Assembly: GCA_964390265.1 (NCBI GenBank)
Contig: CAYMHI010000005.1
Span: forward strand, 1 to 59,797
DNA length: 59,797 bases
From: an uncultured Candidatus Saccharibacteria bacterium
GTDB taxonomy: Bacteria; Patescibacteriota; Saccharimonadia; CAILAD01; BJGX01
Direction: 5' to 3'
The position numbers and the translations under genes were made by a program. How positions within the stretch are numbered: position 1 is the stretch's first letter; each line of letters begins with the position of its first letter. Positions 12,656 to 54,368 of the stretch are shown here, piece by piece. The notes beneath the pieces are model-generated. The model was given only the letters and a program-made list of their open reading frames with translations. It was not told the DNA's origin and searched no databases.

Positions 12656-12663
12656 TCCATTAC

Positions 12664-38038: not shown

Positions 38039-38060
38039 TAAATATTCTATAAAGAAAAAC

Positions 38061-38082
38061 GACACCACTAATGGTGTCGTGC
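38061..38082 (-). terminator. Terminator of the 38099-38407 gene
   Basis: On the minus strand ACGACACC-ATTAGT-GGTGTCGT, followed by TTTTC. Confidence 0.65.
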
Positions 38083-38098
38083 AGATGAAGTCTATGGT

Positions 38099-38407
38099 TC
38101 AGACCTCACCTTCAGTTGGGACAATCTTGACTGCCGTACCCACGGCCATAAGACCATTCGACCCATTTTCTAGGGTAAAGCTAGTAACGACTAGGCCTAC
38201 TACGGCATTGGCGCCGCGTTCAAGCGCACACCCCCGCATCATATATAGTAGGGTTGTATAGCCATCAAGTGTATTTTTGTCTCTACCTTGCATGGGCCCC
38301 GTGCAACAAATGGGGTATTCACCAACAACTTCTACAACTGAATACTCAGGGTATGTGTCGGTAGTGACGACGGGAATGTGCGCAACTTCTTCTGGGCTGG
38401 GAAACAT
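38099..38407 (-). CDS. YbjQ/UPF0145-like (heavy-metal-binding family) protein
   Basis: IPVVTTD..P.Y.V.EVVG...M...A.ERGANAVVGL......MAVGTAVKI; SD AAAGGA. Confidence 0.75.
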   Translation of the reverse strand: MFPSPEEVAHIPVVTTDTYPEYSVVEVVGEYPICCTGPMQGRDKNTLDGYTTLLYMMRGCALERGANAVVGLVVTSFTLENGSNGLMAVGTAVKIVPTEGEV

Positions 38408-38517
38408 TTTGTTCCTTTCTAGGGTGCTACAGAGAGGGCTATCCTCTCACCACAAACTTCAATACTCTTTGTTATCCTAAATTTATTTCAGGATCTCAAG
38501 TTGAAATCTCTGGTGAG

Positions 38518-38550
38518 CCCCACACCACCGTGTATTGAGGTGGTGTGGGG
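38518..38550 (-). terminator. GC-rich 3' hairpin of the ORFan pair 38557-39187
   Basis: CCCCACACCACC / GGTGGTGTGGGG, a perfect 12-bp stem with no T-tract. Confidence 0.6.
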
Positions 38551-38556
38551 TAGAAC

Positions 38557-38871
38557 TCATGGCGCAATCGGCGCTGTGTCGGCATCATATACCTGGTTGC
38601 CGTCAAGGTCGTACGCGTCTGCTTCTTGGTAGGTGCCAAATCGACGTTCTTGCACGATGAAACCGGGCAAGTAGTACCTTTTGCTAGTCGATTCGCTGGC
38701 CTTTTTGGCCCACTGCCCCATGGCTTCTTGCACCTCGGGCTGATTGACGGCATGGTGCTTGTCTGGCACGTCGCCACGCCAGATGGTGTGAAGCTTGCGG
38801 CTGTACTTTGGTGTCAGCGGCCAAAGCCAAGAACGCCTGAACGAAATGCCTCGCACTCTTACTTTGGACAC
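38557..38871 (-). CDS. Hypothetical protein (104 aa, ORFan)
   Basis: GTG start at 38871 after a purine-rich GAAAGAAG. This is the distal, protein-like part of the 157-aa ORF in the track. Confidence 0.55.
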   Translation of the reverse strand: MSKVRVRGISFRRSWLWPLTPKYSRKLHTIWRGDVPDKHHAVNQPEVQEAMGQWAKKASESTSKRYYLPGFIVQERRFGTYQEADAYDLDGNQVYDADTAPIAP

Positions 38872-38890
38872 GGTTGATCTTCTTTCTTTC

Positions 38891-39187
38891 TCAGAACATC
38901 TGCCAAAGCTGGTTGCGGGTGTAGCGTCCACCCGAGAAGCTGAGGCCTCGTTCTTCGATGAATTTGCGGAGAGCCTCGAAGCGATCGAGCGCTTCGTTGA
39001 TAGTCTGGTCGCGGCTTGCGGTGCCAGCATCGTAGTCGCTGTAGTCTGCGAGCGCCCAAACTACCTGTCGCTCAATCTTGGTGAGCAACTCCTCTAGGGT
39101 GAGGATGTTGTGACTACCTAATTGCTCGTGCGTCTTGGGGTCGATATTTAATGTGCACAGCATGGTTTCGCTGACTTGGGTGGGCAT
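38891..39187 (-). CDS. Hypothetical protein (98 aa, ORFan)
   Basis: AGGAG SD, ATG start, promoter TTGACT-17-TATAAT at 39270-39242. Confidence 0.65.
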   Translation of the reverse strand: MPTQVSETMLCTLNIDPKTHEQLGSHNILTLEELLTKIERQVVWALADYSDYDAGTASRDQTINEALDRFEALRKFIEERGLSFSGGRYTRNQLWQMF

Positions 39188-39241
39188 ACTTCCATCTCCT
39201 GAGTGTTTGACTGAATCGACGTAGTTACGTCGAACGTGTGT

Positions 39242-39270
39242 ATTATAACTTAATATATAATAATAGTCAA
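39242..39270 (-). promoter_or_regulatory. Consensus sigma70 promoter of the ORFan pair
   Basis: TTGACT-17-TATAAT; leader hairpin TCGACGT-AACT-ACGTCGA. Confidence 0.7.
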
Positions 39271-39328
39271 TATTTATCTGGTTTTGACAGGTTGAATAAA
39301 TAGCCTTTTTGGGCTATACTTACCAGAT

Positions 39329-41176
39329 ATGAAAAGGCTAAAAGAACAATATGACGTAGTAGTAGTGGGTGCTGGCCACGCTGGCTGTGAGGCAGCAATT
39401 GCCAGTGCCAAGTTGGGGGCCAATACGTTACTTATTACCGGCGATCTTACCAAGGTGGCTTCTTTGCCTTGCAACCCATCGGTAGGTGGACCAGGCAAAG
39501 GACATTTGGTTCGCGAGATAGATGCTTTAGGTGGGGTAATGGGTAAAGTCGTAGATGAAGCGGCTATTCAGCTCAAAGAGCTCAATACTGGCAAAGGGCC
39601 GGCCGTACGAGCTTACAGAGCTCAGCTTGATCGCACCGAGTACAATCGTCAGATGATACAACAACTTAAAAACACCAAAAACTTAAGTATGCTGCAAGAC
39701 GAAGTGATAGGTGTAGAAGCAAGTAAAAAAGTCATTACCGGTGTAACCACCAAGGCAAATGGAGCTATCAATACAAAAACAGTCATTATCTGCTCAGGTA
39801 CTTTTTTAAACGGTGAGATAGTGCTAGGCCCTAAGGTTATTAAAAAAGGCGGCAGAATGGATGCTCCGGCTAGTCATGGATTGTCTGAATCACTTACGGC
39901 TTTGGGGCTCAAGCGCGGAAGGCTTAAAACCGGTACGCCACCACGTATAGAGCGAAGCAGTATAGATTACTCCAGGCTTCAAGAAGCGCCAGGCACTGCC
40001 GGCAAAATTAGTTTTACACACCCCGATAGAGAGGTTGTGCCATTAGACAAGCAAGAGCTCTGCTGGCTTACCTATACTAACGACAAAACTCATCAGATGA
40101 TACTAAATAACTATCATTTGTCGGGTAATACATCGGGTTTAATAACCGAGACTGGCCCGCGCAGCTGTCCTAGCTTAGATCTTAAAGTGAGTAATTTTCC
40201 CAACCAACTTCGTCACCCCATATTTATTGAGCCAGTTGGAAAACAGGGTACACCGGATGGTGAACGCATGTACTTGCAAGGCTGCAGTACTGCTTTCTCA
40301 CCCGAGTGGCAAGAGAAGATTTTTCGTACCATTGAAGGCTTAGAAAACGCCAAATTCTTAGAGTACGGCTATGCAGTACGGTATGACTACTTTTTGCCAC
40401 ACCAATTGTCCACTAGTCTAGAGGCAAAGAATATCAAGGGTCTATTTTTAGCTGGTCAACTCAATGGCACCACCGGTTACGAAGAAGCCGCTGCCCAAGG
40501 GCTAATAGCTGGTATTAATGCAGCCCGAAGCGTGGCCGGTAAGAGTGCATTTGTACTCGGTAGAGCCGAAGCCTATATAGGAGTTCTCATTGAAGATTTA
40601 GTAACAAAAACCCATGTGGAGCCCTACAGAATGTTTACTAGTCGGGCTGAATATCGTTTATTGTTGCGCAACGACAATGCCGACGAGAGACTAACCTATA
40701 AGGGTTACAAGATAGGGTTGCAACCCAAAACAGCGCTAGATAGAGTGAACAATAAAATAGCCAATATCGAGCAAGAAATTAACCAACTTAAAAAACTAAA
40801 AATAAGTGAAGATGGTAAGCAGAGTATTTCGGCCTACGATTGGCTCAAACGGCCCAATAACAATATGCATCGCTTAGCTAAATTTACCAAATACCAAGTA
40901 AACTCAGATGTATCTTACAACGTAGAGATACTTATTAAATACTCCGGCTACTTTAAGCGTCAAGCCAACGATGCCAATAAGCTAATTGAAAAACAACATC
41001 ATATTATACCCAAATCTCTTGATTATCAAAAAATAACTGGTCTACGCAATGAGGCCAAGAAACGTCTTAGTGAAATTCAACCTGAGTCTTTGGCTCAAGC
41101 GTCTTTGGTGCAGGGTGTTACTCCGGCCGATCTCTCTATTATTATGGTACACGCTTTTACTGGCAAAATAACTTAA
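39329..41176 (+). CDS. mnmG: tRNA uridine 5-carboxymethylaminomethyl modification enzyme MnmG (GidA)
   Basis: [58 protein letters not shown] and [20 protein letters not shown]. Confidence 0.97.
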
Positions 41177-41224
41177 TGACAAAAACTGACATACAATTTA
41201 GTTTATTTTGGTATAATATTCTCT

Positions 41225-41881
41225 ATGTTTGATCTCGATAGCCTATTAAGAACAGTTGGTTACTTAGGAATATTTGTTATTATATTTGCTGAATCCGGCC
41301 TGCTTATTGGATTCTTCCTTCCTGGTGACAGCTTATTGTTTACCGCGGGCTTCTTAGCCTCTCAGGGCATTTTCAATATTGCTTTGCTTTGCCTTACTAC
41401 CTTTTTAGCTGCGGTCTTGGGTGACAATGTAGGTTACCAGTTTGGTAAAAAGGCTGGCCCGAGGTTGTTTAAAAAACCCAACTCTATATTATTTTCTCAA
41501 GAGAACATTGTTCGTTCTGAGAAATTCTATAATAAGCACGGCGGTAAAGCCATTATTCTATCAAGGTTTGTACCAGTGGTTCGTACTTTTGCACCAATAA
41601 TAGCTGGGGTGGGCAAAATGCGTTACAAAATGTTTTTTATCTACAACGTCATTGGTGCTTTTATTTGGGCCGTAGGCATCACCTTGCTCGGGTATTACTT
41701 AGGTAAATCTATACCAGATATAGATAAATACCTTGTACCGGTTCTGTTTGTAATTATTTTTCTATCTGTTATACCATCAATGTTTCATCTACTTAAAGAC
41801 CAAGAGAGTCGCGCAAAAATTGTTGGTCAAATAAAAAGCCTTAAAAGAAACAAAGTAAAGACAAAAAAGAGCCGTAAGTAA
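41225..41881 (+). CDS. dedA: DedA/VTT family membrane protein
   Basis: IIFAESGL..GFFLPGDSLLFTAG, GD..GY..G and RFVPVVRTFAP..AG motifs. Confidence 0.92.
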   Translation: MFDLDSLLRTVGYLGIFVIIFAESGLLIGFFLPGDSLLFTAGFLASQGIFNIALLCLTTFLAAVLGDNVGYQFGKKAGPRLFKKPNSILFSQENIVRSEKFYNKHGGKAIILSRFVPVVRTFAPIIAGVGKMRYKMFFIYNVIGAFIWAVGITLLGYYLGKSIPDIDKYLVPVLFVIIFLSVIPSMFHLLKDQESRAKIVGQIKSLKRNKVKTKKSRK

Positions 41882-43155
41882 TGCACGAGATAACACAATT
41901 ACCTAACGGATTGCGTATAGTTACGCACACCATGAAAGAGACCGAGAGCGTTACGGTCAATATTTTTGTAGGAGCTGGTGGTCGATATGAAAATATGAAG
42001 ACCGAGTACGGTGCCTCGCACTTTTTGGAGCACCTATTGTTTAAAGGCACCCACAAAAGACCAAGTGCCAAGCAGATTTCTGAAGAGATAGACTCGGTTG
42101 GCGGGTACTTAAATGCCTTTACCGCCGAAGACCACACAAGCTACTACATTAAACTGCCCAAGAACTATTTTGGTTTGGCTTTCAATATTTTGGCCGATAT
42201 TATTACCGACCCACTATTCGAGCAGGTAGAGATTGATCGTGAGCGCAATGTAATATTGGAAGAGATGAAAGTCTACAAAGACGACCCAGCACGCTATGTG
42301 TATGACTTAGTTGGTGATTTATTGTGGCCCAACGATACTCTTAGAACAAACGTAATTGGCAATGAGCACATTATTAGTACAATGCAGCGCCAAACCATAG
42401 TAGACTACTTTAAAGATCTGTATACTATGGGCAACATAATAGTGTCAGTTGCGGGTAATGTAACCCACCAGATGGTGTTAGATATGGCTCAAAAGCTGTT
42501 GTCGCAAGTACCACCAAAAAGCCACAGAACATGGCAACCGGTACGTGGAGGCCTTTCAAAACAGCGCTATAGCATAGAGAGACAAGATACCAACCAAACA
42601 CACCTCGTGGTAGTTGGTAGAGCGCCCCGCATAGATGCTGACGACGAGGCAGCAATGAAGCTACTAAGTACTATTTTGGGCTCAGGCATGAGCTCGCGAT
42701 TGTTTTTAAATGTCCGAGAAAACAAGGGTCTGGCCTATACAGTTTGTATGAGTTACTCAAACTTTGTAGATAGTGGTAAATTTGAGATTTATGCTGGGGT
42801 AAATAATGACAAAGTTGGCGAAGCGCTAAAGGCTATTCATGAAGAGTTGCAAAAAATACAACGAGAAAAGGTAAGTTTGCGCGAACTTAACAAAGCCAAA
42901 GAGCAAGTTAGGGGGCGTTATATAATGGGTCAAGAGGGTAATGCAGCGGTTGCCGACATGCAAGGCACCCAAATGGTACTTAGCGACAAAGTTGATAGCC
43001 TTACACAAATATTAGCCAAATTAGACTCTGTAAATGAGGAAGACATTTTAGAGGCTGCAAAAAAATATTTGTATAAAGATTTAGTTCGACTTGCAGTCAT
43101 TGGGCCGTTTGACGATATTGAAGTTGAAAAATTTAGTAAATTATTGGAGGAATAA
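41881..43155 (+). CDS. M16 family (pitrilysin-like) zinc peptidase
   Basis: GASHFLEHLLFKGT (HxxEH), NAFT..DHT.YY, and SRLF..VRE.KGLAY. Confidence 0.93.
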   Translation: MHEITQLPNGLRIVTHTMKETESVTVNIFVGAGGRYENMKTEYGASHFLEHLLFKGTHKRPSAKQISEEIDSVGGYLNAFTAEDHTSYYIKLPKNYFGLAFNILADIITDPLFEQVEIDRERNVILEEMKVYKDDPARYVYDLVGDLLWPNDTLRTNVIGNEHIISTMQRQTIVDYFKDLYTMGNIIVSVAGNVTHQMVLDMAQKLLSQVPPKSHRTWQPVRGGLSKQRYSIERQDTNQTHLVVVGRAPRIDADDEAAMKLLSTILGSGMSSRLFLNVRENKGLAYTVCMSYSNFVDSGKFEIYAGVNNDKVGEALKAIHEELQKIQREKVSLRELNKAKEQVRGRYIMGQEGNAAVADMQGTQMVLSDKVDSLTQILAKLDSVNEEDILEAAKKYLYKDLVRLAVIGPFDDIEVEKFSKLLEE

Positions 43156-43157
43156 AA

Positions 43158-43742
43158 ATGATAGAAAAGACATTAGTAATTATTAAGCCAGATGCTCTAC
43201 AAAGAGGTTTGTTGGGGGAGATTATCTCGCGCTTTGAAAAAGTTGGTCTAAAAATGATTGGAGCCAAAATGTTGGTGGTGCCAGAAGAGTTAGCCAATAA
43301 ACACTACCCAATTGATAGAGAAGAGTTTATTAATGGTATGGGCAATAAAACCTTACAAAACTACAAAGACCAGGGCCTTGACCCCATAAAAGAAATTGGT
43401 ACCGACAACCCCAAAGAAATTGGGCAAAAGGTACAGGGTTGGTTGGTAGAATTTATTACCTCTGCACCAGTATTTGTGTGTGTGCTTGAGGGGCCACACG
43501 CAGTAGAAGTAGTGCGCAAACTATCTGGATTTACGCTACCAGCCAAGGCTGATCCTGGTACTATAAGAGGCGACTTCTCATTTGACTCATCTACATATGC
43601 TAACACCAAGAATCGACCAATTCGCAACCTCATACATGCCTCTGGCGACATTAAAGAAGCCGAGTTTGAGGTAAATCTTTGGTTTAACAAAGATGAACTA
43701 TATGACTACAGCACCATACACAATCAACACATGACCCAATAG
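43158..43742 (+). CDS. ndk: Nucleoside-diphosphate kinase
   Basis: EKTLVIIKPDALQRGL.GEIISRFE, PGTIRGDF and NLIHAS motifs. Confidence 0.95.
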   Translation: MIEKTLVIIKPDALQRGLLGEIISRFEKVGLKMIGAKMLVVPEELANKHYPIDREEFINGMGNKTLQNYKDQGLDPIKEIGTDNPKEIGQKVQGWLVEFITSAPVFVCVLEGPHAVEVVRKLSGFTLPAKADPGTIRGDFSFDSSTYANTKNRPIRNLIHASGDIKEAEFEVNLWFNKDELYDYSTIHNQHMTQ

Positions 43743-43807
43743 TAAATAAAAAAACCACCTTAAAAACCATTAAGGTGGCGATGCTCAATTAAGTTTTAAC
43801 TTAGAGC

Positions 43808-43975
43808 TCAGCTAGCGCAGTAGCCATCTTTGCGAGCTGGCTTTTTCTTCTTGCGTTCAATTGGGATGGGGTAGCCGCGGTGGCCACTGTTTTTACGACG
43901 CGTTCTTTGAAGCTTTGGATTGTGAATTTCGGGTGGTGGTTGATGGGTGAAGTGGGGCGGTTCAACACAGGCCAA
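43808..43975 (-). CDS. Small basic Pro/His-rich hypothetical protein (55 aa, ORFan cassette)
   Basis: AAGGAG SD then an in-frame TTG at 43975; extended -10 promoter TTGAGT-18-TATGCT at 44058-44029; hairpin at 43755-43779. Confidence 0.45.
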   Translation of the reverse strand: MACVEPPHFTHQPPPEIHNPKLQRTRRKNSGHRGYPIPIERKKKKPARKDGYCAS

Positions 43976-44172
43976 AATTCGTCTCCTTATGAGTTGGTGG
44001 TTATGCAGGTGCAAGCTACTTGTGGCCTAGCATAGCACAGTAGTTTAAATTAACTCAACTTGTATCTCTTAGAATTTCGCATTTTATGTGTAACTAACTC
44101 ATGGCGGGGATATAATGGCCATAGTAATATTTCAATATTCAAATAACAATCTATAGGTGTTAAGATTTAAGT

Positions 44173-44601
44173 ATGAAGACAAAAATATTTAAGGTGGGCA
44201 CAGGCGCAATAATTGTAAAAGACCAAAAAATACTTTTAGGTCTGCGCGGACCAAAGGCTCGCGACCAACATTATAAGTGGGAACTATTAGGTGGCTTGGT
44301 GCAGTTTGAAGAAACCCCCGAGGAGGCAATAAGGCGCGAAGTTCTAGAAGAGGCCGGTATCACTATTGATCCGATAGATATTATTGGCACCAATGTGCGT
44401 TATAGCGACGACAAAACTGAAGAGTGGGTGGGGCTTACTTACCTTTGTAAATATATTGATGGGCAACCCAAAGTGACCGAATTTGAAAGGGTAATAGACC
44501 ACAAATGGCTGAGCCTAGATGAGTGTTTTGAAAAGAAACTTACACCAATGACTAAGTATCAATTAGAGCAGTACCGGGATTGGCTTAAGAGGAATAATTA
44601 A
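44173..44601 (+). CDS. NUDIX hydrolase
   Basis: Nudix box GG.V.FEETPEEAIRREVLEEAG. Confidence 0.9.
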   Translation: MKTKIFKVGTGAIIVKDQKILLGLRGPKARDQHYKWELLGGLVQFEETPEEAIRREVLEEAGITIDPIDIIGTNVRYSDDKTEEWVGLTYLCKYIDGQPKVTEFERVIDHKWLSLDECFEKKLTPMTKYQLEQYRDWLKRNN

Positions 44602-45398
44602 ACTTCATTGTTAAGTAGTGGTTCTATTCTATCAACCTGCTCCAATAGCTGTTTATTGGAGTACCTATTACGTTCTATTTTTTTCCAGCCTGTATCAAGG
44701 TTTTTCCAGGAGCAAACACTACGTACCCAGCCAAGATAATGGCTGTTATCGCCACCACTAGGATTATTTTTTGTGTAGTGCAATACTTGAGTGTTGAATA
44801 TTTTCATTTTAGGGTCTTTATCGGCAGCTATCCATTGTTCATCATTTAAATATTCCAGCTCTGCTCTCATTGCCCACATAAATTCGCCGTGAGTTACCAC
44901 CACAACTCTTTTGTCGGCGCATTCACGGTGTAGAGTATCAAAAAAACTTCTAACCCTCAATCGTACATCGGCAATAGACTCACCGCTAGGTGGTCGCCAA
45001 TATAGCGCATCAATTTCTTTGCGCAATGCGTTATGAGGAAAAATATTCTTAAATTCTTCTAATGGTATGGCGTCTATGTCGCCCCAATCACGCTCTCTTA
45101 AGCGCTGGGATATTCGCCATTCGGTGTTTGGTAGGTTAAGCAGGCCGGCAGTTTCTCTTGTTCGAATATATGGAGATACATAATATCTGTCAAAATCAAT
45201 ATCTATATTTTTTTGTAGCCACTCACCAGTAGCAACCGCTTGGGCTTGGCCCTCCTTGGTTAGTCGCCATTGGTGGCCCGGGCGTTCTCTAAACTCTGGG
45301 GTATAAAAACTATTATCTCCTAGCTTGGCGGTTTCTACGGCAAGATTACCCTCGGAGTGACCGTGTCGAATTATTATAAGATCATTAGGCATTGGCAT
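44598..45398 (-). CDS. Histidine phosphatase / phosphoglycerate mutase family protein
   Basis: RHGHSEGN, SPY.RT.ETA, LRERDWG, GESIADV..R and VVTHG motifs. Confidence 0.9.
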   Translation of the reverse strand: MPMPNDLIIIRHGHSEGNLAVETAKLGDNSFYTPEFRERPGHQWRLTKEGQAQAVATGEWLQKNIDIDFDRYYVSPYIRTRETAGLLNLPNTEWRISQRLRERDWGDIDAIPLEEFKNIFPHNALRKEIDALYWRPPSGESIADVRLRVRSFFDTLHRECADKRVVVVTHGEFMWAMRAELEYLNDEQWIAADKDPKMKIFNTQVLHYTKNNPSGGDNSHYLGWVRSVCSWKNLDTGWKKIERNRYSNKQLLEQVDRIEPLLNNEV

Positions 45399-45423
45399 AG
45401 TGTTATTATAACAAACATATTAT

Positions 45424-45499
45424 TGGTACCCGGGGAGGGAATCGAACCCCCGACGCTCTCCTTAGGACGGAGACGCTCTATCCACTGAGCTACCAGGGC
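45424..45499 (-). tRNA. tRNA-Arg(CCT)
   Basis: GCCCTGGTAGCTCAGTGGATAGAGCG-TCTCC-GTCCTAA-GGAGA...GGGGGTTCGATTCCCTC...ACCA; 76 nt with encoded CCA. Confidence 0.88.
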
Positions 45500-45644
45500 T
45501 CGTTAGTATTATACCCCTAAATGGCAATAATTAGACATGCTCGTATAAATACTTGTAATAAATGATAAACTATGACATAATGCACAAAGCACCTACAACA
45601 AAAAAAGCATCGATTGATGCTCTGGGCCTTCGAAGGGGGCACAC

Positions 45645-46325
45645 ATGAGTAACACCAAACAAAAGACATTTCCTGACATGATCGGCACAGAATTCTTACT
45701 GTGGCGTAGAGAGTGGCGTTCGGTAGCTACCACAGCATCCAGAGTTGGCCGGGCAGATGGATGGGTGGTGCTCGAAGAAGTACCCGTGGTTGTCATCGAG
45801 CAGCGCAATGATGTACCCGGGATGTTTGGCAGAAGCGTATTTACGGGGCTCAAGGCGCATTCCAAAGACGGCCGAGAGTTCACTCGCAACTGGGATGTGT
45901 ACCCCGACGATGCAATGACCGGCGCAACCCTTTACTGGAGGCACGCAAACGCCGTGCGTAGCGCCCCACATACCGACATGGTAGATGCTATTCAGGCATC
46001 TTCAGTTTTCTACAGAGCGATTGGCGGTCAGTATTACGATGAGGCAGGAGAATTTAAGGTACCCACTGGTGCCGATATATGTCTTCTGCATGGCGACACG
46101 TTCTTGACAGGGCAGCAGTGTAGTGACTGTCACTTCGAAGAGCGGCTAGTCCGCAATCATGGTCAAATCACTTACATCGATTGCCCATTCTGCAACTCCC
46201 AACGGCGGGCAGGCGAACTAGGCAAGGACTTACGAAGTATGCATATTCGGTGGGACCACCCCAAGCAATACCTTGCCTGGACAAACATGGGGCACGACCC
46301 CAGCGATTGGGATAACATCCCTTGA
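45645..46325 (+). CDS. Hypothetical protein with C-terminal CxxC pairs (ORFan cassette)
   Basis: 226 aa; CSDC and CPFC; own promoter, and a long 3' hairpin plus T-tract at about 46340-46392. Confidence 0.7.
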   Translation: MSNTKQKTFPDMIGTEFLLWRREWRSVATTASRVGRADGWVVLEEVPVVVIEQRNDVPGMFGRSVFTGLKAHSKDGREFTRNWDVYPDDAMTGATLYWRHANAVRSAPHTDMVDAIQASSVFYRAIGGQYYDEAGEFKVPTGADICLLHGDTFLTGQQCSDCHFEERLVRNHGQITYIDCPFCNSQRRAGELGKDLRSMHIRWDHPKQYLAWTNMGHDPSDWDNIP

Positions 46326-46491
46326 CAGCTATGCTGTCTAGCTCTCTAGTGTTTCGCAATCAACACCTGCGAAATTCCGGAGGGTTTTTTTAATTACAAC
46401 TTAATCAACACCAAAGTACAAAACCTATTATAGGTAATATAATGTTACGTGTAGAATTTATAGCCTTAACTGGTATACAATAGTATACAAG

Positions 46492-47031: not shown

Positions 47032-47099
47032 TGTCAAAAAGTGTATTATTAAGCCACAGTCTAATTCAGTAGAAAACTAAAGGAGTTTAAATAACTATT

Positions 47100-48164
47100 A
47101 TGCCAAAAGATCCAGATATTAAATCGTCTAGTAAGTCCAAACCGTCAAAAAGCACTAGGCCACCAGCCAAAAAGGGCGCAAAGCGAACAGCCGCCAAGAA
47201 AGCCTTGGCTCAAAAAAGTATGTCTTTTAAAGAAAAGCTCAACAAGCTAGGTGTAGACCCCGAAAAAAACAAAAAAAACGTCCGCAACGTTGGTATAATT
47301 GCGCTAGTAGCTCTATTTATTACTATCACTGTTTTTGGAGTGCTTATATACAAGTACAAAGTCGCTAATAGAGCAGTAAAAATTGCTAGCAAAGTGGTAC
47401 CTTACCCTGTTGCTAGTGTTAACGGCAATGTTATATGGAACACCGCTAGTTATAACGACTATCTTTTTGAACTAGCCTCGGCGCAAAAGTATTTTCAAAC
47501 TCAAAACCAAGATTTTAGCTCAGAAGAAGGTAAAAAGCAGCTGCTACAGTTCAAACAAGATCTTATAAAGCAGCTCGAGGACAACATTATTGTTGCTCAA
47601 CAAGCTAACAAGTATGGTATAAAAGTAAGTGGTAAAGAGGTAGATGAAAAATTTGATCAGCTGGTAAAAGATGCCGGTGGAATTGATCAAGTAAAACGTA
47701 CACTCGATAAACTCTATGGCTGGTCTACAGGCGACTTTAAAGATAAAATTCGTCAACAACTAGTTCGTCAAAAACTTTCTGACAAAGTGTTGAGTGATCC
47801 TGCTCTCACTGCGCCAGCTCAAAAACAAGCCGAAGATATTTTGGCGCAAGTAAATGCTGGTGGTGATTTTGCTGCTTTGGCCAAACAGTACAGTAGCGAT
47901 GGAAGTGCAGCTAATGGTGGCGATTTAGGATTGTTTAGTAAAGGTCAGCTAGTTCCAGAATTTGAGGCTGCAGCCTTTGCTCTCGAGCCAGGGCAAGTAA
48001 GCAAAGTTGTCAAAACTCAATATGGTTATCACATCATTAAAGTTACCGAGAAAACTGGCGACCAAGTACGAGCTAGCCATATACTCATTAAAGGCCCAGA
48101 CTTTGATAGCTGGTTACGTGATCAACGCAATAACGCCAAGATTGTACAGTACTTCCAGCCCTAG
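47100..48164 (+). CDS. prsA: PrsA/SurA-type peptidyl-prolyl isomerase (foldase)
   Basis: TM anchor, SurA-N region and parvulin motif [53 protein letters not shown]. Confidence 0.9.
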
Positions 48165-48218
48165 ATAGCTAACATCTTAAGCAAAAAAGCTCACTCATAT
48201 ATAAAATGTAGTGAGTTT

Positions 48219-48397
48219 TTGCTTTTTGAGCAGTTATTTGCTACAGTATAAGCATAAGAGAAATATTATGATTTTGAACAAAAAACTCACCACATGGTCG
48301 TCATTTGCAAGAACTCCTCAAGCTGCACAAGAAGGTAGTTTTTGAGCATTTATATTAATTAGTACTTTTTGAAAGCTGCCTTCTCGGGCAGCTTTTT
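48219..48397 (+). promoter_or_regulatory. Promoter, 25-codon uORF and alternative hairpins (candidate attenuator)
   Basis: TTGCTT-17-TACAGT; uORF 48268-48345; terminator AAAGCTGCC-TTCTC-GGGCAGCTTTTT at 48372-48397. Confidence 0.5.
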
Positions 48398-48446
48398 GAT
48401 TTGCACGAGAGAATGCACATTGACAACCAAAGAAAGGATCAAGCCG

Positions 48447-48935
48447 ATGACTTTGCCTTACGGAGGTAAATGCCCATACGACAACACCGTAGTAGATTAT
48501 ACTTTTGGCTATAGCGACTCTATTTGGTATTGCCAAAATGGCCATGAGTGGGGCAATGTTGAAGACATTGAGGTAGGTGACAGGTGCGAAGGGTCATTTA
48601 AATATGGCACCAAACTGAGTGAGTACACATCTATGTGTGTATGGTGTGGTCAGATAGTTGAGCATACACCCTTCTTCAATCGCGCCAACGGCAATAAGCT
48701 TGTTTATCACTTGCGGCCACAAACCACTAAGGCAGTATTAGAGCCAGGTGATACTTTATACTTCTCGGAGGCTAAATATTTTGGCGTGATAACAGATATG
48801 TGCGATGGCTGTCAAAAACAGCTCGACGTATTAGAAATAGCCCAGATAGTGACCGATAGATTGAGTAAGAGACAATACGTTATTCACTTGGGCTGCTGGA
48901 GCAAATTGGTCGAAATACTAGAAAGGGGAGTGTGA
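48447..48935 (+). CDS. Cys-rich hypothetical protein (putative zinc-binding)
   Basis: Start at ATG 48447 after GAAAGGA; CPYD...CQNGH, CVWC and CDGC...H.GC motifs. Confidence 0.65.
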   Translation: MTLPYGGKCPYDNTVVDYTFGYSDSIWYCQNGHEWGNVEDIEVGDRCEGSFKYGTKLSEYTSMCVWCGQIVEHTPFFNRANGNKLVYHLRPQTTKAVLEPGDTLYFSEAKYFGVITDMCDGCQKQLDVLEIAQIVTDRLSKRQYVIHLGCWSKLVEILERGV

Positions 48936-49576
48936 TGGAGATGTTTTGTGCCGATGTAGACTTTGAGAGCTTGCTAAGAGGCGTGGTAACCCACGGAGGA
49001 GCGTTTGCGCCTCGAGCATTTAGCGACGAATATTTAGACTATTTGTTAAGTGAGGTAAATAGCTTAGATTACGGCGAGTATTGTTCACAAAGTGACGACC
49101 CTGTCTACGAAAAACATCGTGACTTTCGGGCTAGAGTATATGCCACAGAGGCTAAGATACCGCGTCTTACGCATCTGGTAGAACAAATTGGCTGGCAAAT
49201 ACGTACAGCTAGTCTTGTAGGGGTAAACAACCATCTTTTTTACCCCGACGACATCAATGTGTGGCGGTACAACGATAAGGCCTGCGCCATTGGTAAGCAC
49301 CGCGATTACAGCCACGATTTGTTTTTAATTGTGGGCGTTACGCTTACAGGTTATTGCACCCTAGAGTTTTATGGTGACAACAAAGAAAACACCAGGCCCA
49401 GGCTATGGCAGGCTGGCCCAGGTAGTTTGATGTTTTTGCGGGGTCCAGGGCTTTGCAAAAATGATACTCGTCCATACCACGCCGTCAACCCACCGGTGCA
49501 TGGTGAGAGAATATCTATTATTATTCGCCAAGATATTCGCAACTCCCAGCCAGACTGTACTGGTAAAGAGTACTGA
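48932..49576 (+). CDS. 2OG-Fe(II) oxygenase superfamily protein (AlkB-like)
   Basis: INVWRY....IGKHRD (HxD) ... PGSLMFLRG ... PYHAV ... RISIIIR. Confidence 0.78.
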   Translation: MMEMFCADVDFESLLRGVVTHGGAFAPRAFSDEYLDYLLSEVNSLDYGEYCSQSDDPVYEKHRDFRARVYATEAKIPRLTHLVEQIGWQIRTASLVGVNNHLFYPDDINVWRYNDKACAIGKHRDYSHDLFLIVGVTLTGYCTLEFYGDNKENTRPRLWQAGPGSLMFLRGPGLCKNDTRPYHAVNPPVHGERISIIIRQDIRNSQPDCTGKEY

Positions 49577-49597
49577 GGATGGTAGGGTGGGCTTTAT

Positions 49598-49630
49598 GCT
49601 CCAAGGGTATCACCTTTGGAGCGTTTTTTT
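49598..49630 (+). terminator. Intrinsic terminator
   Basis: GCTCCAAGGG-TATCA-CCTTTGGAGC-GTTTTTTT. Confidence 0.75.
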
Positions 49631-49702
49631 GTTGTAATATTTAGCATGTTAGTATATAAATACTTGTAGTACCTTCAGCCTATCTTCAAAGGAGAATCTG
49701 TT

Positions 49703-50014
49703 ATGTCGGTAATGCAACTCACCATATTTGCATTCGGTGACGTGGCTATGGCTTGTATGGCCATTGCGGCGTATGCCGCGGTTGGCCAATACCGTGCCAA
49801 CAAAAACGAAACAGCAAGATTGATGGTAATTTATCACCTAATATTCTTGGCCATCGTATTTGTAGCATTTGGCTACCTTCAGGCCGTCAACACTCACTGG
49901 TATTGGCTGGTGATTTTGCTTCTGAGTTTTGCCTTTGCTGTAAGGGTTCAGGTGGATATGTACCAAGCAAGGCGCCACCAGGAGCCATTTCAGCATCTCT
50001 GGCCAATCAAGTAG
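49703..50014 (+). CDS. Small 3-TM membrane protein (ORFan cassette)
   Basis: AAAGGAG SD, hydrophobic helices, terminator at 50024-50053. Confidence 0.65.
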   Translation: MSVMQLTIFAFGDVAMACMAIAAYAAVGQYRANKNETARLMVIYHLIFLAIVFVAFGYLQAVNTHWYWLVILLLSFAFAVRVQVDMYQARRHQEPFQHLWPIK

Positions 50015-50023
50015 TGCGCACTC

Positions 50024-50053
50024 ATCCTATCAACTGTAGTTGATAGGATTTTT
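50024..50053 (+). terminator. Intrinsic terminator
   Basis: ATCCTATCAAC-TGTA-GTTGATAGGAT-TTTT. Confidence 0.8.
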
Positions 50054-50110
50054 CTTGATAAAATGATGTAAATTTGGTAAAATTATCAGGTTAGCCAATA
50101 TTCATTTCAC

Positions 50111-50187
50111 GGGCTCGTGGTGTAGAGGCCTAACACGCCTCCCTGTCACGGAGGAGATCGCCGGTTCAAATCCGGTCGGGCCCGCCA
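50111..50187 (+). tRNA. tRNA-Asp(GTC)
   Basis: GGGCTCG acceptor stem, CCTCC-CTGTCAC-GGAGG anticodon arm, GGTTCAAATCC T-arm, G73-CCA. Confidence 0.95.
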
Positions 50188-50228
50188 AAGAAAGTGCCTC
50201 AGCAAAGCTGGGGTATTTTCTTTGGCGA
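50183..50228 (+). terminator. Long hairpin overlapping the tRNA-Asp 3' end
   Basis: CGCCAAAGAAAGTGCCTCAGC-AAA-GCTGGGGTATTTTCTTTGGCG. Confidence 0.6.
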
Positions 50229-50387
50229 AGTTTGTTTTGATTTTGACCTTGCTAAGCCGATTAGACAGATGCATAGCATTCTGTCGCTATCCAGTTCGAG
50301 CCTGTATTTTAACTGTTGCAGGGGGAAGGTAGGCGAACAGCAGGTTGGGCTGAATATATTTAAGCTATCTAATAGGGCTTACAATTA

Positions 50388-50416
50388 TTGACTAATTTTA
50401 ATATATACTTTATCAT
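50388..50416 (+). promoter_or_regulatory. sigma70 promoter of ORFan 50451
   Basis: TTGACT-17-TATCAT. Confidence 0.65.
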
Positions 50417-50421
50417 ATTTA

Positions 50422-50463
50422 CGTCCACAGTACCTACTTAAGGAGAACTTTTGCCTACCATCA
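50422..50463 (+). repeat. Shared 42-nt leader/start module, copy 1
   Basis: 37/42 identical to 51528-51569. Confidence 0.85.
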
Positions 50464-50891
50464 TAACGTTGTGTCAGCGAAGCTGGCAACCACCAGACGA
50501 AGGTGTTGTGACTGGCCAAGCAACGACAACTGTCGCGATGACAGAGTGGGTGATGGAACTCACCCCGGGCATCATCAATAGCTACGATGCACGAGATGGT
50601 GTTGATGAGATTGCGCATGATCAGGTATGGGCTTACTATCCACTCATGCACAGACCCACCAACGGTGCCGATGTACTCATTGTGGCTAGGGTTCCAGATG
50701 TTGATCTGAGCTTTGCTGATAGAGAATGTCGCCGCAAGTACTTCAGAGACGCTTACCGCCACGAGCTCAGGTATCAGCTACGGAGCAATAATGATCACCT
50801 AATCATGCCCCATTGGGAGATCGAAGTAATTCCCGAGCTCTCTAGCGGATACGGGCACAACTTCTACCTAGGTGTAGAATACAGCTGGTAA
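50451..50891 (+). CDS. Hypothetical protein (146 aa, ORFan cassette)
   Basis: AAGGAG SD, TTG start, own promoter and 3' hairpin. Confidence 0.7.
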   Translation: MPTIITLCQRSWQPPDEGVVTGQATTTVAMTEWVMELTPGIINSYDARDGVDEIAHDQVWAYYPLMHRPTNGADVLIVARVPDVDLSFADRECRRKYFRDAYRHELRYQLRSNNDHLIMPHWEIEVIPELSSGYGHNFYLGVEYSW

Positions 50892-50898
50892 TTATCAA

Positions 50899-50956
50899 GC
50901 CCCTCCGGGCTCTTCACTCATAGGAGTGGGGAGGTTCCCGCGAGGGGCCTCTTCAT
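50899..50956 (+). repeat. Conserved 3' hairpin element, copy 1
   Basis: GCCCCT..GGGCTC..CACTC-loop-GAGTG..GAG....AGGGGC-CTCTTCAT; homologous to 51382-51440. Confidence 0.8.
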
Positions 50957-51091
50957 ATCTGAAAACATAATGATTGTAACTGTAAGTTGTTAAATATTGA
51001 TTTTAATATAAATTTATGCTAATATAGTGTGCGTTCTCAAAAAGAGAACACTCCTGCCCAACAGACCAACTAGTTAAAGGAGGTTAGCGCA

Positions 51092-51376
51092 GTGAAGCTA
51101 ATCCGACTTCCAGACCCCACGCCCGATATGTGGATTGGTGATTTCACACAGATCATGAGAGCCACTTCAGGCGGTATTTGTGCCACTCCCAAAAACCCTC
51201 AGTTCGGGAACTTCTGGGCCGATCGCCCATGCTCGGTCTTTCAGCACAAATGGCGAACTCTTGCTGTAACTGAAACCGACACTCAGTGGCCCCGTCGAAT
51301 CAACCGGTGCCAGCGTTGCGGGTCACAGGTTCATCAGGACATTACGGTTTCGCCCCCACGGCGAGGCAGTATCTAA
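51092..51376 (+). CDS. Hypothetical protein with a CxxC motif (94 aa, ORFan cassette)
   Basis: AAAGGAGG SD, GTG start, promoter TTGATT-17-TAATAT at 50997-51025. Confidence 0.65.
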   Translation: MKLIRLPDPTPDMWIGDFTQIMRATSGGICATPKNPQFGNFWADRPCSVFQHKWRTLAVTETDTQWPRRINRCQRCGSQVHQDITVSPPRRGSI

Positions 51377-51381
51377 CAACT

Positions 51382-51440
51382 GCCCCTGCGGGCTCAACAC
51401 TCAATTCAAGTGAGTGAAGAGCTCAAAGGGGCTTCTTCAT
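51382..51440 (+). repeat. Conserved 3' hairpin element, copy 2
   Basis: GCCCCTGCGGGCTCAACACTCA-ATTCAAG-TGAGTGAAGAGCTCAAAGGGGC-TTCTTCAT. Confidence 0.8.
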
Positions 51441-51493
51441 GTTTATATTATTTTAAGATAGTTCAGCAATCCGTCTCGATAGCCCGCCCATTA

Positions 51494-51522
51494 TTGACAT
51501 ATATTTGTAATTGCTCTACTAT
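51494..51522 (+). promoter_or_regulatory. sigma70 promoter of ORFan 51557
   Basis: TTGACA-17-TACTAT. Confidence 0.7.
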
Positions 51523-51527
51523 ATGGT

Positions 51528-51569
51528 CGTCCATAGAACCTACTTAGGGAGAACCATTGCCTACCATCA
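51528..51569 (+). repeat. Shared 42-nt leader/start module, copy 2
   Basis: 37/42 identical to 50422-50463. Confidence 0.85.
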
Positions 51570-51913
51570 ACTACGGTAAAATAATCGATAAAGTTCATTT
51601 TCTCGAACCCAACGAAACTGTGTTTTATACTGTATTGAAAAGTGGGCGTCGAGTATTTATTACCTACAACGGTTTCAACAGCAATCCTCTAGATCCCTAT
51701 GAGTCTGATGGAGAACGTATATACTACACCAAGCTGTATGAAGTTTTCGCTCCAGCCAACCTAGAAGACAGCGAGCGGGAGGAAGTGGAGGCACTATTGG
51801 ATCGTTACAAGAAACTCGAGGTTTTTGTTGCTGCGGTTGAGACTAGAGAGCTCAGGCTTGTCGCTCTCGATGCACCTGTTCCGTGGTTGGCAAACTCTCC
51901 GGCCTGTCGCTAG
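51557..51913 (+). CDS. Hypothetical protein (118 aa, ORFan cassette)
   Basis: GGGAG SD, TTG start, 3' hairpin CCCGAGGCTCTA...TAGAGAGCCTCGGG plus T-tract at about 51927-51980. Confidence 0.7.
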   Translation: MPTINYGKIIDKVHFLEPNETVFYTVLKSGRRVFITYNGFNSNPLDPYESDGERIYYTKLYEVFAPANLEDSEREEVEALLDRYKKLEVFVAAVETRELRLVALDAPVPWLANSPACR

Positions 51914-52103
51914 CCCCACAACTGCTCCCGAGGCTCTATATTTGCTTTTAATGCATCTAGAGAGCCTCGGGGGATTTTTTATAACCGCATAGATTGTTTA
52001 TTAGTTGACAATACTATAATAATAGTATAATATCATGTAGTTCTGAGTTTCTCAGAAGATCTTCACATCCAAATACAACCACTCCTAAAGGACGGTGCAT
52101 CAA

Positions 52104-52814
52104 ATGATTGCGTCAACCGAACCTCAATTTCTATACCCGAAGTCCCGCCAGTATCCATTCGATGAGGTATGCGAGCAGATTGTTCGCGCTCTCGAAGAGC
52201 GCGGCTGGGATGTTCCTGGCCTCACCATCAACTTTGGTGTGTATGGTGGTGAAGCAGAGAAATACCGTCTGGTTCGCTCAATTGTTGGCGACGACTTCGT
52301 TTTGCACTTTGGCCGCCCGCAAGGACGACTAGGGCGCTACAACGATACGGCTGCAATCAGCGATATCAAAATTCCTCGTAAAGAGATCCATGTTTACGAG
52401 GATAACTCTGGCCCAAGCCTCTACGTTTACGTTGGCCGAAACTGGGCTAAGGACAAGCAGCGCTTCTTCGGTAGCCTAAAGGTTAACAGCAAGCTTCATG
52501 GCGAGCCTCGTCTGTACCTCTGGTACAAAGGTGGCTGCAACTGCCAGAGCGCCCGAGGTGCGAGCTTTGAGGCCACCGGTTTTTTGACGGCTACCTTAGC
52601 GGGTGACGCAAAGGCTTTGGCAGCAATGAGCCATACCCATCCCGGGCGCCTTGCCCCATTGCTCATCGCCAATAGCGATCTTGGTAGGGAATACTCACCA
52701 AAGGGCAAAGAGCCTGTTAGCTATACAACTGAAGAGGTATTTGCCGAGTTCACTCAGTACCTCAGAGATGCAGTACTGAGGATGATCTTGGCGGCACCTT
52801 TGTTTAGCTCGTAA
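52104..52814 (+). CDS. Hypothetical protein (about 236 aa, ORFan cassette)
   Basis: Promoter TTGACA at 52005; leader hairpin TTCTGAG-TTT-CTCAGAA. ORF open from GTG 52095; ATG 52104 is the likelier start. Confidence 0.75.
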   Translation: MIASTEPQFLYPKSRQYPFDEVCEQIVRALEERGWDVPGLTINFGVYGGEAEKYRLVRSIVGDDFVLHFGRPQGRLGRYNDTAAISDIKIPRKEIHVYEDNSGPSLYVYVGRNWAKDKQRFFGSLKVNSKLHGEPRLYLWYKGGCNCQSARGASFEATGFLTATLAGDAKALAAMSHTHPGRLAPLLIANSDLGREYSPKGKEPVSYTTEEVFAEFTQYLRDAVLRMILAAPLFSS

Positions 52815-52849
52815 GATAGTCACTAGAGGCTGTTTTGAAGGATGTGGCA

Positions 52850-52894
52850 CCGCCCCGTGTTATTAGCACGGGGTGGCCCACCCCAAGATTTCAA
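52850..52894 (+). repeat. GC-rich 3' hairpin with a tail shared with the 38501-38550 element
   Basis: CCGCCCCGTG/CACGGGGTGG stem, then GGCCCACCCCAAGATTTCAA. Confidence 0.55.
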
Positions 52895-53088
52895 ATTATT
52901 TGAAGTTTTAGGTTGGGAGATGATTTTGACTATAGACTACCTGCAGTGCCTTTGTGGGGTCCGTTTATTGCATCTTATTCTTATTAATAATCATAAATAT
53001 TTAACTATTCATATTATATTATTGTATATTTATAAAAAAAGTGATATTATATGTTTCGACCCAATTGTTCCTACCAAGAGAGGCAAAC

Positions 53089-53850
53089 ATGTATATATTG
53101 CTTACAGCTTTTTTGATAACAGTGTGTATAGTAATGCACGAAGCTGGCCATGCATATTGCATGAAGATCCATGGGATACAAATCAAGAGAGCGGGCCTGG
53201 GTTTTGGTCCAGGCATTAAGGTATTCTCAAAAAGGCTAGGTTACCCCATAAAATTTGGGATTATTTTGCTAGGTGCATTCGTAGAACCACAAGATGGAGA
53301 AATGAATCGCCTCAAAACTATGCCATACAGAGTGCAGGCCGAGATTTATGGCGCTGGTGTAATTGCCAATATCGTATTTAGTATGGCTATTGCAGTATCT
53401 CTAAATACGCTAGCCGTTTTACAAGGAGATCTGTCTGGCGGCATTTTCTTAAGTATTGCAATATTTGCAGCACTAGCAGCTTTAGCTTGGTTTAAACGTT
53501 GTTTTTTTTCTATGTACTTGACGCCAGTTATAGGTATGTTATTCCTGGCTTTTCTAGTATATATTCTGTTTTTTAACAGCACGCCAAACAGCTCAGAAGT
53601 GTCAGGTCCTGGCGGTATTGTAGAAATTGTTGGTATGGCCAATTCTTTTGAGTACGGCATGATTATTGCAATGGTCATATCTATCAATATAGCACTCTTC
53701 AATATGTTGCCGTTTGTGCCTCTTGATGGTGGTAGAATATGCTCGGCTCTAGTTCGGCAATACAGCAATAGTATTGCTATTATTTTTGAGGGGGTAAGCC
53801 TGGCAAGCTTCATCGGGCTAATTGCCTACATCTTTATCGTTAATTTCTAA
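53089..53850 (+). CDS. Site-2 protease (M50 family) zinc metalloprotease, no PDZ domain
   Basis: HEAGH (HExxH), GAFVE, AG...N and FNMLPFVPLDGG motifs. Start at ATG 53089 after GAGAGG. Confidence 0.88.
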   Translation: MYILLTAFLITVCIVMHEAGHAYCMKIHGIQIKRAGLGFGPGIKVFSKRLGYPIKFGIILLGAFVEPQDGEMNRLKTMPYRVQAEIYGAGVIANIVFSMAIAVSLNTLAVLQGDLSGGIFLSIAIFAALAALAWFKRCFFSMYLTPVIGMLFLAFLVYILFFNSTPNSSEVSGPGGIVEIVGMANSFEYGMIIAMVISINIALFNMLPFVPLDGGRICSALVRQYSNSIAIIFEGVSLASFIGLIAYIFIVNF

Positions 53851-54021
53851 AATTACAACCGCTAGTAAAATAGCGGTTTTTTTAATATAAAAAAGCATAA
53901 GAATCTTATTGACTTTTGAATAACTATTTGATACGATAAGGGTAACTTCAGAGGTGAAGCCAGATAAGATTTTAATAAATCAAAACAAAAAATAATATAA
54001 AAACAAAAAGGAGGGCAACTA

Positions 54022-54267
54022 ATGCAAGTTGCAATGCTAACATATTATCAAGTCACCAGACCACGCAAGGTAAAGGTGAGGGTGGTTAAGGCACACGATC
54101 AAGTGCCTTATTTGGGTAGCGAAAACGTACTAGATATTCGCTCAATCTCGCAAAAAGGCAAGACTAAGTTTGGTAGATCGTTTTTCTTAAGCCCTAATGA
54201 ACGTAAAATAACCGAGTATGAAGCTTGGCAAAAGCTTTCTAAACGGCTTCAAAAGCGTATTCCTTAA
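54022..54267 (+). CDS. Small basic hypothetical protein (81 aa, ORFan cassette)
   Basis: AAGGAGG SD; promoter TTGACT-17-TACGAT at 53909-53937; terminator at about 54308-54350. Confidence 0.6.
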   Translation: MQVAMLTYYQVTRPRKVKVRVVKAHDQVPYLGSENVLDIRSISQKGKTKFGRSFFLSPNERKITEYEAWQKLSKRLQKRIP

Positions 54268-54368
54268 ATACACACCATACAATCAATCTAACCTGAAATA
54301 TGGTAAAATATGAGTTGCTTTACAAAGATAGTGAGTAGCTCATATTTTTTTGTGTAAATATTTAGTAC

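Follow-up and report, generated by a model that had tools for sequence, protein, structure and literature searches.

How do bacteria with very small genomes acquire and exchange accessory genes? Saccharibacteria and other members of the candidate phyla radiation (CPR) combine tiny, streamlined genomes with a life on host bacteria, and many of their genes have no known function. To our knowledge, the gain and turnover of their accessory genes are poorly understood. The question is raised by a stretch of 59,797 nt, here called the window, from an uncultured Candidatus Saccharibacteria bacterium. The window is contig CAYMHI010000005.1 (C5) of a genome of 0.90 Mb, which is distributed over 27 contigs and has a GC content of 42%. 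Between its genes for tRNA-Asp and tRNA-Thr lies a row of small genes. An initial annotation regarded these, and similar genes elsewhere in the window, as ORFan cassettes exchanged by recombination between shared 5' and 3' modules. With a confidence just above even, the interval is read here as a tRNA-anchored gene-capture hotspot that holds a cassette array, with a mechanism that we infer.

The slot between tRNA-Asp and tRNA-Thr

The window was compared with the syntenic loci of ten relatives from the genus, family and order. In the left part of the shared backbone, g35383, xerC, mnmG, dedA, an M16 peptidase gene and ndk follow one another (with a nudix and a His-phosphatase gene next in line). 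In the right part, tRNA-Arg, bPH, ppiC, the open reading frames (ORFs) o48369 and o48932, and tRNA-Asp are followed by variable sequence and then by o54022, tRNA-Thr, o54500 and a glycosyltransferase gene. Four variable slots interrupt this otherwise syntenic backbone, namely between tRNA-Asp and tRNA-Thr, between xerC and mnmG, between tRNA-Arg and bPH, and between the o48369/o48932 operon and tRNA-Asp.

The first of these slots is anchored by tRNA-Asp(GUC) (50111..50187, plus strand), the position of which is conserved in all relatives. Its right border is the gene of the conserved 81-aa core protein 54022 (54022..54267, plus strand; own promoter at 53909-53937), present in 10/10 relatives with 57-97% identity, and tRNA-Thr(CGU) (54369..54444, plus strand) is the conserved right-hand landmark. 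Among the relatives, the slot measures from about 0.3 kb, where it is empty, to 5.8 kb. Its contents are unrelated between them, and from species to species within the genus the genes vary in number, identity and order, in support of the variable gene content postulated by the initial annotation. The six tandem units counted there between the two tRNA genes are indeed flanked as described, but amount to four variable cassettes and an M50 peptidase gene.

The interval holds a row of self-contained single-gene transcription units, each with a sigma70-type promoter, a Shine-Dalgarno (SD) sequence and a hairpin. The first cassette gene, o50451 (50451..50891, plus strand, 146 aa), is preceded by a sigma70-like promoter at 50388-50416 (TTGACT-17-TATCAT). 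Orthologues with 71-77% identity occupy the equivalent slot of sister species, where the neighbouring genes differ, and a homologue with 38% identity is found in a tRNA-His array of another family (genome G048). The second gene, o51092 (51092..51376, plus strand, 94 aa), has a Cys-rich C-terminus. Its 52% homologue in the equivalent slot of a sister species lies upstream of the o50451 homologue, with two other genes in between. The third gene, o51557 (51557..51913, plus strand, 118 aa), has a sigma70-like promoter at 51494-51522 (TTGACA-17-TACTAT) and an ordinary U-tract terminator, predicted at 51924-51981. It is a near-ORFan: a word-indexed search of 5.8 billion clusters gave one match, a close-strain copy with 98% identity, and one remote homologue (38%), with the N-terminus MTPREK instead of MPTI, was obtained when 1.8 billion representatives were searched in full with HMMER. 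The fourth cassette, o52095 (52005..52878, plus strand), consists of a promoter (52005-52033), a coding sequence (CDS; 52095/52104-52814) and a hairpin (52848-52878). Together with the promoter of 54022, those of the cassettes bear out the near-consensus sigma70 sequences that had been noted before.

The o52095 family comprises more than 100 clusters, and its genes stand in scattered contexts in CPR bacteria, Clostridia and archaea. Its members often carry an extra domain of about 160 aa. The AlphaFold2 model of o52095 reaches a predicted local distance difference test (pLDDT) score of 90.6. Foldseek returned no PDB match for this fold (best E 0.45), and a profile search of the PDB with the family was also empty. 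To the right of this cassette, the gene of an M50-family peptidase (53089..53850, plus strand) has native GC (0.40) and occupies this slot in only 1/10 relatives. An Rfam scan of the slot returned tRNAs only.

The cassette genes are real genes under purifying selection, foreign in composition and patchily distributed. Their reality follows from this selection, with ratios of non-synonymous to synonymous substitutions (dN/dS) of 0.12-0.28 for o50451, 0.18 for o51557 (against the close strain) and 0.22 for o52095. As a reference for composition, the GC content at third codon positions (GC3) was taken from a proxy set of 884 genes (mean 0.383, standard deviation 0.073, 95th percentile 0.522). About nine ORFs of the window are lineage-specific: the pentapeptide/YbjQ/o38891 block, o45645, o49703, o50451, o51092, o51557 and o52095. 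Their GC of 0.46-0.56 and GC3 of 0.54-0.70 compare with genome means of 0.42 and 0.383, placing them in the top 5% for GC3. Some 15 ORFan genes of raised GC had originally been listed. The description suits these nine or so, whereas 54022 is a core gene, the M50 peptidase gene at 53089 and ORF 10825 have native GC, and ORF 43808 is doubtful.

Such genes behind a tRNA gene could also be the leftover morons or cargo of a prophage or integrative element that inserted at tRNA-Asp and decayed, losing its integrase and structural genes. The site downstream of a tRNA, the partial tRNA-end repeats described below, and the single genes with their own promoter and terminator and atypical GC, as known from phage morons, agree with this origin. 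So do a weak match of o51092 to phrog_4480 (E = 1.4e-4) and the presence of the o52095 family on three IMG/VR contigs of 206-394 kb (L064-L066). Scans of the candidates against Pfam, PHROGs, NCBIfam and PADLOC were nevertheless near-empty, with YbjQ and this one weak PHROG match as exceptions; the other 9/10 scanned ORFs have no PHROGs match, 10/10 have no PADLOC match, and no phage match was obtained for o50451. Integrase, capsid and replication remnants are absent from more than 15 related slots, the blocks are only 1-2 kb long, and the slot is refilled differently in each species. Unlike morons, the cassettes have no prophage context and are surrounded by core cellular genes, so that the comparison with phage morons in the initial annotation is not upheld. 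A prophage remnant is considered quite improbable.

Recurring elements at the junctions

Three kinds of elements recur at the junctions of these arrays: tRNA-end tails derived from fold-back (TL) units, promoter modules, and a 3' hairpin family. At least eight tRNA genes in the genome are repeated in part 150-175 nt downstream, where a copy of the final 18 nt of the respective tRNA gene ends a conserved TL unit. Behind tRNA-Asp, two decayed TL units can be recognised (50183..50384, plus strand). The first is composed of the hairpin with the tRNA-Asp CCA end (50183-50227) and the scaffold with the decayed tail GCTATCCAGTTCGAGCC (50228-50305), and the second, judged by its sequence, is more decayed (50331-50384). 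Further into the slot, the tail remnant AATCCGTCTCGATAGCCCGCC (51468..51488, plus strand), a decayed copy of the tRNA-Asp/TL 3' end, abuts the o51557 promoter. It is identical at 20-21 of 21 positions to the copies found at junctions between other cassettes in a sister species (locus L024). A loose pattern of this tail occurs nine times in the 1.8 Mb of two-strand genome sequence, and about 0.015 occurrences are therefore expected by chance in the slot.

Tails mark presence/absence differences in the three comparisons counted. L024 differs from L020, a locus with 99.4% identity, by a block of 1008 nt (L024 474-1481) that encodes a single protein of 232 aa and is bounded exactly by two ...CCCGCC tails. 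In genome G002, compared with G006, a 2.2-kb block (11641-13882) reaches from the tRNA-Asp end to a ...CCCCCGCCA tail, which is followed by a TL unit. The remnant at 51468 in the window is the third case. These tail-bounded blocks measure 1.0-2.3 kb and are present or absent exactly at "...CCCGCCA" tails. The boundaries that coincide with these differences are copies of tRNA 3' ends, which the initial annotation overlooked in favour of its own boundary modules.

Three parts make up an intact TL unit (~165 nt): a long hairpin into which the tRNA CCA end is folded, a conserved scaffold, and the exact 18-nt copy of the tRNA end. The scaffold follows the pattern GGTTCGGYG..GCGCAG-hairpin-CGAGCAC..GAAGGCG..AGCCGCT and occurs in two subtypes. 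TL loci (L026-L033) are located at C1:671-905, C1:17132-17374, C2:28303-28560, C2:59798-60039, C8:48756-49005, C13:26319-26547, C16:38-457, where two units stand in tandem, and C27:2131-2350. No Rfam 15 match was obtained for the eight intact tRNA-linked elements that were scanned.

Of the promoter modules, two copies are present in the window. Copy A (50384..50463, plus strand) contains the o50451 promoter, the 5' untranslated region (UTR), the SD sequence and codons 1-4 (MPTI), and copy B (51490..51569, plus strand) contains the promoter, UTR and MPTI codons of o51557. Their identity amounts to 76% across 80 nt and rises to 88% in the last 42 nt, codons 1-4 included, in agreement with the leader originally described as common to the two genes. 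No further copy was found in the genome itself (blastn-short), in 32 family genomes, where a 31-nt pattern, searched with a tolerance of 3 mismatches, retrieved only the window pair, or in public genome, metagenome and viral collections (three exact degenerate scans). The leader is therefore not the dispersed module it was taken for, and the initial annotation itself would have classed such an isolated pair as a local duplication.

In sister species, the o50451 orthologues have a related 5' UTR and the MPTI start, and MPTI is kept down to the 38% homologue in another family. The homologue of o51557 lacks MPTI, and o50451 and o51557 show no similarity in BLASTP. One recombination event therefore copied the 5' module, comprising a tail remnant, the promoter, the UTR and four codons. 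Copy A is assigned as native to the o50451 family, and the leader thus appears, from these sequence comparisons, to be the 5' end of that family, grafted once onto the unrelated o51557. This is real module reuse, yet single and local. Local tandem duplication followed by divergence would instead make the module-sharing genes diverged paralogues. The extension of the leader into the first four codons and the adjacency of the three genes would suit such an origin, which is contradicted by the lack of BLASTP similarity, by tblastn against the genome, where none of the 15 candidates has a second copy, and by the different N-terminus of the remote o51557 homologue, set against an MPTI start preserved in the o50451 family to 38% identity. 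Paralogy is hardly credible on these grounds, and the module-sharing ORFs are unrelated, as had been assumed.

The third element is a hairpin of about 58 nt. HP-1 (50899..50956, plus strand; GCCCCTCCGGGCTC...GAGGGGCCTCTTCAT) lies behind o50451. HP-2 (51382..51440, plus strand), behind o51092, is the sole further member of the family in this genome. They share 72% identity over 60 nt and a common stem layout, and the pairing of o50451 with o51092 through this 3' element stands as first reported. A covariance model built from seven copies detects the hairpin in 10/60 genomes of the order, some of them from two other families, with 2-6 copies per genome that are often clustered. With the strand fixed by a TCTTCAT tail, the ORFs upstream belong to at least ten unrelated families, which corroborates the proposed reuse of the 3' element. 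A filters-off covariance scan of the window returned only the two copies, and the remaining hairpins are generic (<13 bits). The single architecture that had been ascribed to all candidate genes is accordingly valid as a generic layout of promoter, SD sequence and terminator, whereas homologous modules are limited to three adjacent genes.

The hairpin is present behind every o50451 orthologue and also behind the o51092 homologue in a sister species. At the orthologous o50451 loci it is 88-93% identical, compared with 72-83% for the CDS, while the proportion of synonymous differences (pS) is 0.35-0.65, mostly 0.54-0.65 and near saturation. The hairpin sequence is therefore under constraint. In L024, the hairpin of the o51092 homologue has a similarity of 0.82-0.84 to the o50451-type hairpin and of 0.70 to the hairpin of its orthologue in the window, so hairpin and ORF are not always co-inherited. 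Homology between sister loci stops right after the hairpin in L020/L024 and L016/L018, a small sample without a null model. The hairpin is most likely a terminator or an RNA-stability element that travels with the cassettes; it may possibly serve as a recombination site. Even under plain homologous recombination, the family is a new candidate regulatory or terminator element for this group.

A clearer instance of the cassette layout imagined in the initial annotation occurs in another family. In the G048 array (L054 = G048:C14, 9020-11850), tRNA-His is followed by four minus-strand single-gene cassettes, the first of which is the o50451 homologue. All four carry a near-identical promoter module (TTGACTTTTT[GA]CT...TA[AT]AT) and a 3' hairpin of the HP family, in the order hairpin then promoter at the junctions. 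Pseudo-tail-like GTTCG...CCCA stretches are visible between the hairpin and the next promoter.

A further difference was noted between the strains of L020 and L024. Right after the hairpin, a 510-nt segment in L020 (3751-4260) stands in place of 22 nt in L024 (5082-5103). The segment has 58% GC and apparently contains a small gene on the minus strand, complete with promoter and terminator.

Gene capture and competing explanations

In the hotspot reading, blocks of one to three genes would enter at the "...CCCGCCA" tRNA-end site. They would be inserted by a recombination that acts in trans, is specific for a site or a structure, and duplicates the tail. The array would later be reshaped by recombination between repeated junction modules, which would explain both the o50451 5' module on o51557 and the homogenisation of hairpins within a genome.

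A number of results weigh against this reading. Four metagenomic strains with 96-99% identity to the window are colinear with it over 50190-53024. Turnover thus shows up between species and among certain strains of a sister species, not within this species, and the shuffling proposed at the outset is not visible as an ongoing process. Two of the differences between strains are replacements that begin directly behind the hairpin and lack flanking repeats. The tail-bounded presence and absence of blocks can also be obtained by deletion between direct repeats, and since disruptive insertions are purged by selection, any insertion mechanism should leave breakpoints immediately beyond a gene and its terminator. 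No shared modules are recognisable at the junctions 50960-51090, 51985-52090 and 52880-53088, and the survivors in the window are just one tail remnant (51468) and two hairpins. Across the genome, high-GC3 genes lie no closer to tRNAs than the remaining genes do (p = 0.36). Finally, none of the slots examined contains a recombinase gene, and none of the three in the genome is linked to the array.

Much of this would be expected of ordinary genomic islets without any cassette mechanism, produced by natural transformation and by homologous or illegitimate recombination between the conserved flanks, namely tRNA-Asp, the 54022 gene and tRNA-Thr. Promoters and terminators would then arrive with their genes, the likeness of the hairpins would reflect a common donor lineage, and the tails would be debris of unrelated TL elements. 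Colinear close strains, junctions that mostly lack common sequence, repeat-less replacements, the missing enrichment of high-GC3 genes near tRNAs, and a leader copied in a single local event all suit this explanation. The hairpin-bearing loci of other genomes have a GC of 0.50-0.56, fitting a higher-GC donor pool. Three independent blocks with tRNA-end tails on either side are not easily explained in this manner. The same applies to hairpins that, although rare in each genome, occur together in arrays whose promoter modules match, and that are conserved far above synonymous sites without always being inherited together with the ORF. Ordinary islets are regarded as a possible explanation, but not as the probable one.

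A more specific proposal goes beyond the hotspot reading. Saccharibacteria might possess a dedicated, integron-independent capture system, in which tRNA ends and TL tails would act as docking sites, the hairpin as the cassette-side site, and an enzyme in trans would insert, excise and reorder self-expressing cassettes. This proposal is doubtful at present. Candidates for the enzyme would be the Xer-type tyrosine recombinase, one of two serine recombinases, or an unknown protein. The Xer-type gene (36414..37418, minus strand) is the sole PF00589 gene in the genome, and its position is conserved in relatives. It lies inside the window, 13 kb from the tRNA-Asp array, and its product is a candidate trans-acting enzyme for the array; Xer involvement is a guess. 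The two large serine recombinases are encoded on other contigs (C16:15952 and C23:479). The window had been described as free of integron integrases and transposases. IntI is indeed lacking, but the Xer-type tyrosine recombinase is located just left of the region considered at that time.

Among known systems, the array is best read as PeSL-like and integron-like in its logic and as a member of neither. Promoter-early stem-loop (PeSL) cassettes of T4-type phages are small ORFans in hyperplastic regions (Arbiol et al. 2010, PMC2839356; Comeau et al. 2014, PMC4122927). Their genes are flanked by a repeated motif of a sigma70-like promoter and a stem-loop terminator, to which the indels and replacements between close relatives map (PMC2839356, PMC4122927). 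In layout, the arrays described here come closest to these cassettes: the motif is clear in G048 with its four junctions, whereas the window, with two 5' modules and two hairpins, is a partial match. In contrast to PeSL cassettes, the host here is a cellular chromosome, the array is tRNA-anchored with copies of tRNA 3' ends, and motif copies in the window are few.

With integrons and clusters of attC sites lacking integron integrases (CALINs), the array has in common tandem single-gene cassettes of unknown function, often ended by a palindrome and variable in content. As in CALINs, there is no recombinase within the array. Integron cassettes are promoterless and expressed from a common promoter, Pc, and attC sites follow the core pattern R''/L''-L'/R' (RYYYAAC...GTTRRRY). 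Here, each cassette has its own promoter, and IntI, attI and Pc are missing. The hairpin, which ends GCCCC...GGGGCYTCTTCAT, is an imperfect palindrome 3' of the ORF without the R''/R' (GTTRRRY) cores, it is found on only 2 of 4-5 units, and the docking site resembles a tRNA 3' end. The integron-like cassettes of the initial annotation are therefore not integron cassettes.

Islands of tRNA-targeting tyrosine integrases insert at the tRNA 3' end, and successive insertions lead to arrays. Direct repeats of tRNA 3' ends likewise bound the blocks of L024 and G002, with a remnant in the window. The blocks differ from such islands in being only 1-2.3 kb long and without integrase, and their repeats come from a small fold-back family behind many different tRNAs. 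Acinetobacter plasmids carry pdif modules, small accessory modules that are moved between replicons by the host XerC/XerD (PMC6449649, PMC13141974). These modules also lack a recombinase of their own, and the sole tyrosine recombinase of the present genome is Xer-type. Unlike them, the array is chromosomal and tRNA-adjacent, and no 28-bp XerC/D sites, which were not searched for systematically, were identified at its junctions. The pdif modules therefore serve purely as an analogy of mechanism.

In the searchable literature, no earlier account of arrays of this kind in Saccharibacteria was found. If the array is what it appears to be, it would offer a defined place and a candidate mechanism for accessory gene turnover. 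A true capture system would provide a minimal, host-dependent genome with a compact way of sampling accessory genes. The tails, the 3' hairpin and the promoter modules are concrete, testable sequences, and cultured, naturally transformable Saccharibacteria are suitable for this purpose. The slots could be used as natural neutral sites for engineering, even under plain homologous recombination.

Smaller slots and further features

In the hotspot reading, the other three variable slots are smaller versions of the tRNA-Asp-type capture slot. xerC and mnmG directly adjoin in the ten relatives, and in the window they are separated by a lineage-specific insert (37391..39187), all genes of which are missing at the syntenic loci. 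The insert encodes a pentapeptide-repeat protein (37391-38038, plus strand), a YbjQ-like protein (38099-38407, minus strand) and a high-GC two-gene unit (38557-39187, minus strand) with o38891, which has a GC3 of 0.70. In this operon-like unit, o38891 (98 aa) is accompanied by another ORF of about 100 aa, which shares the frame of a 157-aa ORF. A 5' hairpin is present, as is a strong GC hairpin (38510-38545). The unit may encode a toxin-antitoxin-like pair.

The slot between tRNA-Arg and bPH is bordered by tRNA-Arg(CCU) (45424..45499, minus strand) and contains o45645 (45645..46325, plus strand). This gene encodes a Cys-rich protein of 226 aa with a GC3 of 0.56, occurs in 2/60 genomes of the order and is missing at the syntenic loci. 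The strand of tRNA-Arg(CCU) is flipped in G004 (L004 11986-12061) compared with the window and the other relatives, which points to a small local inversion beside the variable slot.

To the left of tRNA-Asp, the conserved two-gene operon (48369..49576, plus strand; 188 aa and 214 aa) belongs to the backbone and is not a cassette. It is followed by o49703 (49703..50014, plus strand), which encodes a small membrane protein with a GC3 of 0.55, has its own terminator (50024-50049) and is missing at the syntenic loci of the relatives. The two closest species show another variable slot, where 6 kb are inserted between ppiC and the operon of o48369 in G006 (L001 5628-11684) and G002 (L002 10016-15900). 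The insert contains large ORFs of 679-812 aa and is missing from the window.

Among the remaining candidates outside the slots, ORF 3652 has a raised GC3 of 0.62, and ORF 58867 has a 49% homologue at the equivalent place in a sister species. ORF 43808, with its His/Arg/Pro-rich translation, looks non-coding. Elsewhere in the genome, genes with very high GC3 (up to 0.85) cluster on C17 (15.4 kb, GC 0.463), at C2:42900-56100 and at C6:17800-48500; these clusters are probably further foreign islands. ARAGORN additionally reports two odd tRNA-like genes, at C10:41176-41248 and C10:41361-41437, with undetermined anticodons called as 2 nt and 4 nt.

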